Assembly (NCBI RefSeq): GCF_003334815.1
Contig: NZ_QOWO01000073.1
From: Escherichia coli
Lineage (GTDB): Bacteria > Pseudomonadota > Gammaproteobacteria > Enterobacterales > Enterobacteriaceae
Direction: 5' to 3' (one strand)
Length of the DNA stretch: 5,353 nucleotides
The notes beneath the pieces are model-generated. The model saw only the letters and a program-made list of their open reading frames with translations, was not told the origin of the DNA and searched no databases. Below, piece after piece: positions 2,888 to 5,250 of this stretch. Position 1 is the stretch's first letter; each line of letters opens with the position of its first letter. The position numbers and the translations under genes are program-made.

Positions 2888-2990
2888 GTCTCTGCTTTTT
2901 GCCGCTTTTGTAATACAGTCTACGTCCGGGTTAGTGCCGCCTGGTGAAAGCATCATTGGATGAAAAATCGGCAACAGGCTGGCCCCCTGT

Positions 2991-3019
2991 TTGCTTCGCG
3001 ATGCGAATAAACTTATTAT
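2991..3019 (+). promoter_or_regulatory. Candidate pdeA promoter (-35 TTGCTT at 2991..2996, 17-bp spacer, -10 TATTAT at 3014..3019)
   Basis: Motif match only, about 42 nt upstream of the ATG at 3061. If real, it argues against the upstream in-frame starts at 2944 and 3001, which would lie upstream of or inside the promoter. Confidence 0.3.
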
Positions 3020-3060
3020 TTGTGTGCCTGAAAACCCCGATCAGTGAGAGTAGTGTACTC

Positions 3061-5250
3061 ATGTTTGTGGAGCATAACCTGATAAAAAATATCAAGATAT
3101 TCACACTAGCGTTTACGCTCACCGTGGTACTTATTCAGCTATCCCGTTTTATTTCGCCACTTGCCATTATCCATTCCAGTTATATCTTTCTGGCGTGGAT
3201 GCCACTGTGCGTAATGCTGTCAATCTTGTTTATCTTTGGCTGGCGCGGTGTCGTTCCCGTTTTATGCGGGATGTTTTGCACCAATCTGTGGAACTTTCAT
3301 CTCTCTTTTTTACAGACTGCGGTCATGCTCGGTAGCCAGACGTTTGTCGTGTTGTGTGCCTGCGCAATATTACGCTGGCAGCTGGGGACGCGTTGGCGTT
3401 ATGGATTGACCAGCCGATATGTCTGGCAACGTCTGTTCTGGCTTGGTTTGGTGACGCCGATCGGCATCAAATGCAGCATGTATCTTGTGGGGAGCTTCTT
3501 TGATTTCCCGCTAAAGATATCCACCTTTTTCGGCGATGCGGATGCCATTTTCACGGTCGTTGATTTGCTAAGCCTTTTCACCGCTGTGCTGATTTACAAC
3601 ATGCTTTTCTACTATCTCACTCGCATGATTGTAAGTCCCCACTTTGCGCAGATATTGTGGCGCAGGGATATCGCTCCGTCGTTGGGCAAAGAGAAACGCG
3701 CATTTACCTTAAGCTGGCTGGCAGCGTTAAGCGTGCTGCTACTTCTGTTGTGCACACCTTATGAAAACGACTTTATTGCCGGTTACCTGGTACCCGTTTT
3801 CTTCATCATCTTTACCCTCGGGGTCGGTAAGCTTCGCTATCCGTTTTTAAATCTCACCTGGGCTGTTTCAACGCTTTGCCTTCTGAATTACAACCAGAAC
3901 TTTTTGCAAGGGGTGGAAACCGAATATTCGCTGGCATTTATTCTTGCGGTGCTGATTTCCTTTAGCGTTTGCCTGCTCTATATGGTGCGCATTTATCATC
4001 GCAGTGAATGGCTTAATCGCCGCTGGCATTTGCAGGCGCTGACAGATCCGTTAACGCTCCTACCCAACTTTCGTGCGTTGGAACAAGCGCCGGAGCAAGA
4101 GGCGGGCAAGAGTTTTTGCTGCCTGCGCATTGATAATCTTGAGTTTATGAGTCGTCATTACGGCTTAATGATGCGCGTTCACTGTATCCGCTCAATTTGC
4201 CGTACGCTGCTGCCGTTGATGCAGGAAAACGAAAAGTTGTATCAATTGCCGGGTAGTGAACTGCTGTTAGTGCTGAGCGGGCCGGAAACGGAAGGGCGAC
4301 TCCAGCATATGGTTAACATCCTGAATAGTCGGCAAATTCACTGGAACAATACCGGGCTGGATATGGGCTATGGTGCTGCCTGGGGGCGTTTTGATGGAAA
4401 TCAGGAAACCCTGCAACCCTTGTTGGGGCAGTTAAGCTGGCTGGCGGAGCAATCCTGCGCACATCATCATGTGCTGGCGCTGGATAGCAGAGAGGAGATG
4501 GTTTCCGGGCAGACCACTAAACAGGTGCTATTGCTGAATACCATTCGCACGGCGTTAGATCAGGGTGATTTGCTGCTCTACGCCCAGCCAATTCGCAACA
4601 AAGAGGGTGAAGGTTATGATGAGATCCTCGCGCGACTGAAATATGACGGCGGCATTATGACCCCGGATAAGTTTCTGCCCCTTATTGCTCAGTTTAACCT
4701 TAGCGCGCGTTTTGATTTGCAAGTGCTGGAATCCTTGTTGAAGTGGCTGGCAACACACCCTTGCGACAAAAAAGGACCGCGCTTTTCAGTCAATTTAATG
4801 CCGCTCACGCTGCTGCAAAAGAATATTGCCGGGCGGATTATTCGTCTGTTTAAGCGTTATCACATCTCCCCGCAGGCGGTCATTCTTGAGATCACCGAGG
4901 AGCAGGCGTTTTCTAACGCAGAAAGCAGCATGTACAACATCGAGCAGCTGCATAAGTTTGGTTTCCGGATTGCGATTGATGACTTTGGCACCGGATATGC
5001 CAACTACGAACGGTTAAAGCGTTTGCAGGCTGATATCATCAAAATTGATGGCGTCTTTGTGAAAGATATTGTCACGAACACGCTGGATGCGATGATTGTG
5101 AGATCAATTACCGATCTGGCGAAAGCGAAGTCATTGAGTGTGGTCGCGGAGTTTGTCGAGACGCAACAGCAGCAGGCGCTATTGCATAAGCTCGGGGTGC
5201 AATATCTGCAAGGGTATTTGATTGGTCGCCCGCAGCCATTAGCTGATTAA
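3061..5250 (+). CDS. pdeA: c-di-GMP phosphodiesterase with MASE1 membrane domain, degenerate GGDEF domain and EAL domain, 729 aa (ORF open upstream to GTG 2944)
   Basis: N-terminal ~300 aa is hydrophobic with multiple predicted transmembrane segments (MASE1-like). Middle region begins with a GGDEF-domain-type TDPLTLLPNFRAL segment, but the GGDEF signature position reads PGSEL (4249..4263). C-terminal EAL domain carries EILAR (4621..4635), NLMP, EITEE, DDFGTGYA, KIDG, AEFVE and QGYLIGRP, i.e. the catalytic/metal-binding residues appear retained. Start taken at ATG 3061 to match the 729-aa length I recall for YfeA/PdeA; TAA stop at 5248..5250. Confidence 0.9.
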   Translation: MFVEHNLIKNIKIFTLAFTLTVVLIQLSRFISPLAIIHSSYIFLAWMPLCVMLSILFIFGWRGVVPVLCGMFCTNLWNFHLSFLQTAVMLGSQTFVVLCACAILRWQLGTRWRYGLTSRYVWQRLFWLGLVTPIGIKCSMYLVGSFFDFPLKISTFFGDADAIFTVVDLLSLFTAVLIYNMLFYYLTRMIVSPHFAQILWRRDIAPSLGKEKRAFTLSWLAALSVLLLLLCTPYENDFIAGYLVPVFFIIFTLGVGKLRYPFLNLTWAVSTLCLLNYNQNFLQGVETEYSLAFILAVLISFSVCLLYMVRIYHRSEWLNRRWHLQALTDPLTLLPNFRALEQAPEQEAGKSFCCLRIDNLEFMSRHYGLMMRVHCIRSICRTLLPLMQENEKLYQLPGSELLLVLSGPETEGRLQHMVNILNSRQIHWNNTGLDMGYGAAWGRFDGNQETLQPLLGQLSWLAEQSCAHHHVLALDSREEMVSGQTTKQVLLLNTIRTALDQGDLLLYAQPIRNKEGEGYDEILARLKYDGGIMTPDKFLPLIAQFNLSARFDLQVLESLLKWLATHPCDKKGPRFSVNLMPLTLLQKNIAGRIIRLFKRYHISPQAVILEITEEQAFSNAESSMYNIEQLHKFGFRIAIDDFGTGYANYERLKRLQADIIKIDGVFVKDIVTNTLDAMIVRSITDLAKAKSLSVVAEFVETQQQQALLHKLGVQYLQGYLIGRPQPLAD

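Follow-up and report, generated by a model that had tools for sequence, protein, structure and literature searches.

The open frame upstream of Escherichia coli pdeA most probably holds a promoter and a short leader

The pdeA gene of Escherichia coli K-12 (yfeA, b2395; UniProt P23842, PDEA_ECOLI) is annotated with a product of 729 amino acids that starts at position 2517832 on the minus strand of NC_000913.3. Two transcription start sites (TSS) were assigned to yfeA by Kim et al. (2012; PMC3415461, Table S1), using 5'-triphosphate-enriched 5' RACE-seq ends from exponential-phase MG1655. One of these is at 2515889 (U00096.2, minus strand; 3 reads) with a 35-nt UTR, and the second is at 2515987 (U00096.2, minus strand; 7 reads) with a 133-nt UTR. 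In-frame alternative starts that give N-terminally extended proteoforms have been catalogued by retapamulin-assisted ribosome profiling (bioRxiv 10.1101/520783). No entry for yfeA/pdeA was found in the supplements covered from Ettwiller 2016, Yan 2018 (SMRT-Cappable-seq), and Cho 2014 (sigma-factor network), and a literature search for a described yfeA/pdeA promoter gave nothing relevant.

In this report, we analyze a stretch of 5,353 nucleotides of E. coli DNA (contig NZ_QOWO01000073.1, hereafter the window), in which the pdeA frame remains open upstream of the annotated start codon. Positions 2853–5353 of the window are the reverse complement of MG1655 NC_000913.3 and contain no differences; the pdeA region is the same in sequence as that of K-12. 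Window position p corresponds to NC_000913.3 2520893 − p, and the K-12 start is ATG 3061.

The pdeA locus and its three candidate starts

The order of the region in E. coli is gltX – yfeD – yfeC – tRNA-Ala(GGC) – pdeA (yfeA), with the following features.

336–1751, + strand: gltX
1803–2195, − strand: yfeD
2197–2556, − strand: yfeC
2777–2852, + strand: tRNA-Ala (GGC), found with ARAGORN and as Rfam tRNA (63 bits); equivalent to alaX/alaW of K-12
2860–2887, + strand: intrinsic terminator of the tRNA-Ala operon, found in a terminator scan; a 10-bp stem followed by a T-run
2944–3060, + strand: open stretch of 39 codons containing GTG 2944 and ATG 3001; judged to be non-coding (promoter and 5' leader)
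3061–5250, + strand: pdeA (yfeA) coding sequence of 729 amino acids with MASE1, degenerate GGDEF, and EAL domains; PGAP and MG1655 annotation

Both alaW and alaX are found upstream of pdeA in MG1655, whereas the window has a single tRNA-Ala copy. A tandem tRNA-Ala pair precedes the pdeA ortholog in 30 of 33 orthologous loci, and the terminator hairpin at 2860–2887 is kept in Escherichia, Citrobacter, and Salmonella. No Rfam family of structured RNA was found in 2890–3060 at E ≤ 1; the only matches were the tRNA and sub-threshold hits to the terminator hairpin.

An earlier reading of this DNA, made from the sequence only, had described the pdeA frame as open from GTG 2944 through ATG 3001 to ATG 3061, and this was confirmed in the list of open reading frames. 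The open reading frame on the + strand spans 2944–5250 and encodes 768 amino acids from the GTG; ATG 3001 and ATG 3061 share this frame and give proteins of 749 and 729 amino acids, respectively. The frame is in fact open from 2935 (42 codons), and the nearest in-frame upstream stop is the TAG at 2932–2934. The probability of 39 stop-free codons was determined to be 0.157 from the local base composition and 0.149 from 20,000 shuffles. The length of the 117-nt open stretch is unremarkable relative to chance.

The sequence-only reading had also seen no strong Shine-Dalgarno (SD) sequence at any of the three starts, and the pairing with the anti-SD sequence was found to be weak throughout. The duplex energies for 2944, 3001, and 3061 are −3.2, −1.5, and −4.0 kcal/mol, respectively, relative to a window-wide median of −2.5 kcal/mol over all ATG/GTG/TTG triplets. 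The strongest pairing among the three candidates is that of ATG 3061. Codon-usage scoring, which discriminates weakly because the training set was small and included pdeA itself, gave −0.13 per codon for the extension and −0.016 for the lowest in-frame 39-codon window of pdeA; within the extension, frame 0 outscores both of the other frames.

The 39 additional residues had been described as a non-hydrophobic tail, and this description is only partly right. Residues from about 15 to 28 (PVCFAMRINLLFVCL) are moderately hydrophobic, but they remain below the threshold for a membrane segment. With the usual Kyte-Doolittle cut-off of 1.6, the 19-residue means were found to reach 1.48 for residues 16–34 and 1.59, just under the cut-off, for residues 24–42, a span that extends into the mature protein. 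In the numbering of the 768-residue form, the Pfam matches are MASE1 at 55–354 (E = 4e-67, starting at position 2 of the 299 in the model), a partial GGDEF at 365–461 (E = 8e-4), and EAL at 532–763 (E = 3e-59). This order of MASE1, degenerate GGDEF, and EAL domains fits a PdeA/YfeA-type phosphodiesterase. Since MASE1 begins at residue 55 with position 2 of its model, the extension lies outside of the domain and is not needed by MASE1.

In every genome inspected, the start assigned by PGAP is the equivalent of ATG 3061. Exact-sequence look-up returned the 729-residue form from at least 1000 contigs and from UniProt (PDEA_ECOLI), the 749-residue form from 16 contigs, and the 768-residue form from 9 contigs (e.g., Shigella boydii Sb227). 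The ambiguity in the start is real in the older annotation and has already been settled in the curated sets. The 749- and 768-residue models that persist in some GenBank records (e.g., Shigella boydii Sb227, E. coli MS 124-1) extend the protein too far.

The predicted promoter and the mapped transcription starts

The elements of transcription initiation that were located upstream of ATG 3061 are listed below.

2928, + strand: upstream TSS G2928, weakly supported (Kim et al. 2012, Table S1)
2991–2996, + strand: candidate −35 hexamer TTGCTT, which is TTGATT in most other genera
3006–3012, + strand: AATAAAC in the promoter spacer, with conservation near that of the hexamers (31 species, compared position by position)
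3014–3019, + strand: candidate −10 hexamer TATTAT, 17 nt after the −35 hexamer
3026–3060, + strand: proximal TSS G3026 and 35-nt 5' UTR (Kim et al. 2012, Table S1; placed by flanking sequence)

The candidate sigma70 promoter TTGCTT-17-TATTAT that had been proposed to lie inside the extension is present as described, at 2991–3019. A consensus scan missed this promoter because the −35 hexamer has only 3 of the 6 consensus bases, which is below the threshold of the tool. An alignment of the 110 nt that precede the start codon in 34 species showed a single conserved island, AaCTTGaTTcg..AATAAAC.TATTAT. In 32 of the 34 species, the pattern TTGNNN-17-TANNNT precedes the ATG by 36–53 nt, with an 18-nt spacer in Klebsiella spallanzanii; the corresponding count in 500 shuffles was 4.4 on average, with a standard deviation of 1.9 and a maximum of 11. 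The arrangement of −35 hexamer, 17-nt spacer, and −10 hexamer is kept in about 30 genera, and the TTG is nearly invariant. The conserved AATAAAC and the −10 hexamer together read AATAA-N5-TTATT, and the spacer motif is possibly an operator.

The proximal TSS, G3026, is located 7 nt after TATTAT. The 35-nt 5' UTR that follows contains a weak SD-like sequence, GAGAG, at 3046–3050, of which Citrobacter and Salmonella retain the GAG core. Transcription from G3026 therefore produces an mRNA without GTG 2944 or ATG 3001, and only the weak TSS at G2928 would include these two codons. The latter TSS is 16 nt upstream of GTG 2944 and 41 nt past the T-run of the tRNA-Ala terminator. The read counts are low at both sites and higher for G2928 than for G3026 (7 versus 3). 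No promoter for G2928 was found by the consensus scan. The sole candidate found by eye for a −10 hexamer, TACAGT at 2914–2919, was rejected for want of an acceptable −35 hexamer. The DNA around G2928 is conserved within Escherichia only, and G2928 may stem from a lineage-specific promoter of low strength or be a residual end from read-through or processing. Because G2928 is upstream of both alternative starts, there may be an mRNA that carries both upstream start codons and could encode the long forms.

The INRI-seq supplement lists only a weak peak at an in-frame CTG, located 18 nt inside the annotated pdeA coding sequence, and nothing upstream of that coding sequence. For the Klebsiella pneumoniae ortholog, KPN_02745, the portion of the TSS table that was covered contains no TSS.

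Conservation of the upstream frame between and within species

The species set was composed of 33 usable orthologous loci with upstream DNA, taken from the GTDB species representatives of other Enterobacteriaceae; the E. albertii locus in our collection (L005) ends at residue 118. Three contigs (P0002, P0003, and P0008) were considered as outgroups between E. coli and Citrobacter and were set aside when they proved to be from E. coli. In the protein search, the orthologs were overwhelmingly 729 amino acids in length, and coverage of the 768-residue query ended at 94–95%. An ATG aligned with ATG 3061 is present in all 33 orthologs. The length of the in-frame open stretch upstream of this codon has a median of 11 codons, versus a geometric expectation of about 20, and in 21 of the 33 orthologs it contains no ATG, GTG, or TTG. 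Just 1 of the 33 loci has an upstream open stretch of at least 39 codons.

At the position equivalent to ATG 3001, Citrobacter has GCC GCG and Salmonella arizonae has GGT ACG; the sister Escherichia lineage (L004) has the ATG, followed immediately by a stop (ATG TGA). Insertions or deletions of 1 nt relative to E. coli were found in the nearest relatives between the equivalent of ATG 3001 and the real start. The conserved AATAAACTTATTATT is read as NKLII in two long Citrobacter-like gene calls and as RINLLF in the frame of E. coli. Region 2890–2985 is unconserved outside of Escherichia. At AATAAACTTATTATT, it is the DNA that is conserved and not the reading frame, and neither the start codon nor the frame of the extension shows the conservation of a genuine N-terminal coding extension.

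The sequence-only reading held that a transcription start upstream of 2944, together with codon-like conservation of 2944–3060, would show that the longer form is real. An upstream TSS is indeed listed, weakly (G2928, 7 reads), but the codon-like conservation that was to accompany it is clearly absent, given the 1-nt indels, the TGA that closes the frame in the sister lineage directly behind its counterpart of ATG 3001, and the different frame in which Citrobacter reads the conserved DNA.

Variation within E. coli was determined from 60 records taken at even steps among 5,428 matches, and the variable feature is a C-run.

2983–2987, + strand: variable-length C-run; C5 in the window and K-12, C4 in the sister lineage and about 62% of the 60-genome sample

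The full span of 141 nt was found in 23 of the 60 records, and the span was 1 nt shorter in the other 37. All seven of the shorter-span records that were fetched, including O157:H7 and B2-type (Nissle-like) strains, have C4 in place of C5. The C4 allele was also found in Nissle 1917, in sister lineage L004, and in two metagenomic E. coli contigs. GTG 2944 joins the pdeA frame only with C5, the K-12-type allele (about 38% of the 60-genome sample). With C4, the TGA at 2961–2963 enters the frame, and the extension closes at 32 codons. The C4 allele is likely ancestral, and C5 is probably a derived 1-nt insertion, since most of the sampled E. coli share C4 with the sister lineage. Each of the 11 E. 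coli alleles examined has ATG 3001 and keeps it in frame, and the DNA from 2988 to 3060 is nearly invariant within E. coli. The invariance of ATG 3001 does not discriminate between coding and promoter function because the entire promoter DNA is equally invariant.

Assignment of the start and comparison with known systems

We conclude with high confidence that 2944–3060 is a promoter and short leader and not a part of the PdeA coding sequence, and that PdeA starts at ATG 3061 and is 729 amino acids in length. The preference for ATG 3061 in the sequence-only reading is now backed by the mapped TSS at G3026, by a promoter conserved in 32 of 34 species, and by an extension frame that is conserved neither between species nor within E. 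coli. In the best explanation, the extension would contain the predicted sigma-70-type promoter of pdeA (TTGCTT, a 17-nt spacer, and TATTAT). Transcription from G3026 would produce a 35-nt leader with the weak SD-like GAGAG (3046–3050), and translation from ATG 3061 would then yield the 729-residue MASE1-GGDEF(degenerate)-EAL protein. We infer that ribosomes start only, or overwhelmingly, at ATG 3061. The upstream frame would be open by chance, with ATG 3001 falling in the promoter spacer and GTG 2944 in frame because the K-12-type allele gained an extra C at 2983–2987.

A low-level extended isoform in C5 strains, by whichever route, is improbable. It is very unlikely that a minor 749-residue proteoform arises in E. 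coli from occasional initiation at ATG 3001 on transcripts that start at G2928 or read through the alaX terminator, which would add MRINLLFVCLKTPISESSVL to the protein. The 7 reads listed for G2928, the in-frame ATG 3001 in 11 of 11 alleles, and the annotation of this form on 16 public contigs are consistent with such a product. However, the SD pairing of ATG 3001 is essentially nil (−1.5 kcal/mol), the codon is absent from the mRNA of the proximal promoter, and outside of E. coli proper it is either missing or followed at once by a stop. Its invariance is sufficiently explained by its location within the spacer of a promoter that the whole family conserves, and G2928 is without a preceding promoter consensus. 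There is even less reason to expect a 768-residue proteoform from GTG 2944 as a lineage-specific extension that the 1-nt insertion in the C-run created in K-12-type (C5) strains, and we assign it a very low probability. Points in its favor are the open frame of the window and of about 38% of the sampled genomes, the location of G2928 16 nt upstream of the GTG, and the annotation of this form on 9 contigs, such as that of Shigella boydii Sb227. Against it are a GTG start with weak SD pairing (−3.2 kcal/mol), a frame that is broken in the sister lineage and in about 62% of the E. coli sample, a region (2890–2985) that is unconserved beyond Escherichia, and the chance probability of 0.15 for such an open stretch. 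The combined proposal, that the C5 insertion fused GTG 2944 to the pdeA frame and that GTG 2944 or ATG 3001 then supports some low-level translation of G2928 transcripts, is likewise very unlikely. If true, it would represent a newly born lineage-specific N-terminal tail on a c-di-GMP phosphodiesterase that could alter membrane insertion or stability.

It is conceivable, and again very unlikely, that the island at 2989–3020 is mainly an operator for a transcription factor, either AATAA-N5-TTATT around the −10 hexamer or TTGATTCG/CGAATAAA half-sites, and that the true promoter is elsewhere. This would account for a spacer AATAAAC that is about as conserved as the hexamers, an uncommon degree of conservation for the spacer of a promoter. 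However, the hexamers, their fixed 17-nt spacing, and the TSS 7 nt downstream all suit a promoter, and an operator that overlaps the promoter would be compatible with the promoter-and-leader assignment and no replacement for it.

The assignment of 2944–3060 as promoter and leader agrees with the curated annotation and the published TSS. Its significance is small, namely that the curated start of the 729-residue pdeA is confirmed. A by-product of this analysis is a pdeA promoter that, together with its conserved spacer, is preserved across the Enterobacteriaceae immediately after the tRNA-Ala(GGC) operon, and this conserved promoter may aid in studying the regulation of a poorly understood phosphodiesterase.

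The pdeA locus resembles the catalogued cases of N-terminally extended proteoforms in that an ATG and a GTG precede the annotated start in its frame and no stop lies between. It differs from them in that the SD pairing of these codons is weak, the frame is unconserved, and the proximal promoter is downstream of both codons. With the canonical sigma-70 promoter, TTGACA-17-TATAAT, the predicted pdeA promoter shares the 17-nt spacer and a TSS 7 nt downstream of the −10 hexamer. The −10 hexamer TATTAT matches TATAAT at 5 of 6 positions, including A2 and T6, and the −35 hexamer matches TTGACA at 3 of 6 positions in E. coli (TTGCTT) and at 4 of 6 in most relatives (TTGATT). Unlike the spacer of a canonical sigma-70 promoter, that of pdeA is unusually conserved.

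Promoter spacer and initiation signals of pdeA and yfeC

The promoter of pdeA is composed of the -35 element TTGCTT (2991-2996) and the -10 element TATTAT (3014-3019), separated by a spacer of 17 nt. Across about 30 genera, the sequence AATAAAC within this spacer (3006-3012) was found to be conserved nearly as well as the -35 and -10 elements themselves. The AATAAAC bases and the -10 element together form the inverted repeat AATAA-N5-TTATT (window 3006-3020), which may be an operator that overlaps the -10 element of pdeA.

The supplement of the INRI-seq translation-initiation dataset contains a weak in-frame CTG initiation signal at window 3079-3081 (MG1655 2517813). 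This CTG is located 18 nt 3' of the annotated ATG of pdeA, and the signal may be a simple offset of the ATG 3061 footprint.

As with pdeA, the annotated starts of yfeC (window 2541-2556, minus strand) disagree. The PGAP protein is composed of 119 aa and begins at the ATG at 2556 (MFKERMTPDE...), whereas b2398 of MG1655 is composed of 114 aa and begins MTPDE.... Kim et al. 2012 (PMC3415461) mapped the minus-strand transcription start of yfeC to window 2601, so that both translation starts are downstream of it. In the INRI-seq data, an ATG peak for yfeC is found at +10, out of frame.

Deleted and truncated forms of the pdeA locus

In an E. coli-like contig of GCA_002924505.1 (L093, 1540-1560), about 135 bp is missing between the 3' end of tRNA-Ala and the -35 element of pdeA, and CCACCAAA is joined directly to GTTTGCTTCG at the junction. 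Through this deletion, both the tRNA-Ala terminator and the region of G2928, the weak upstream transcription start of pdeA, are absent. The gene calls for L093 place the start of the reading frame within the tRNA (P0002, MQEVSGSIPLSSTK...). Comparable over-extended calls of 811 aa are P0010 and P0124.

In some lineages pdeA is truncated or a pseudogene. The annotation of pdeA in strain 2012EL-2448 (NZ_CP027586.1) reads 'incomplete; missing C-terminus', and a MASE1-only protein of 440 aa (P0028) is found in 46 contigs, including those from Shigella flexneri.

The flanks of pdeA compared with MG1655

On the 3' side of pdeA, the end of an IS186 element occupies window 5276-5353 and begins 25 nt past the stop codon. 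This segment is identical to MG1655, where IS186C (2514273-2515617) has the same placement.

On the 5' side, the window contains a single tRNA-Ala(GGC) gene (2777-2852). A full-length match to this single-copy arrangement was found in only 133 of the 5,426 complete E. coli genomes, and because of this rarity the single copy is likely the result of a recombinational collapse of the repeat. In contrast, MG1655 and most genomes contain the tandem pair alaW/alaX, 115 nt apart.
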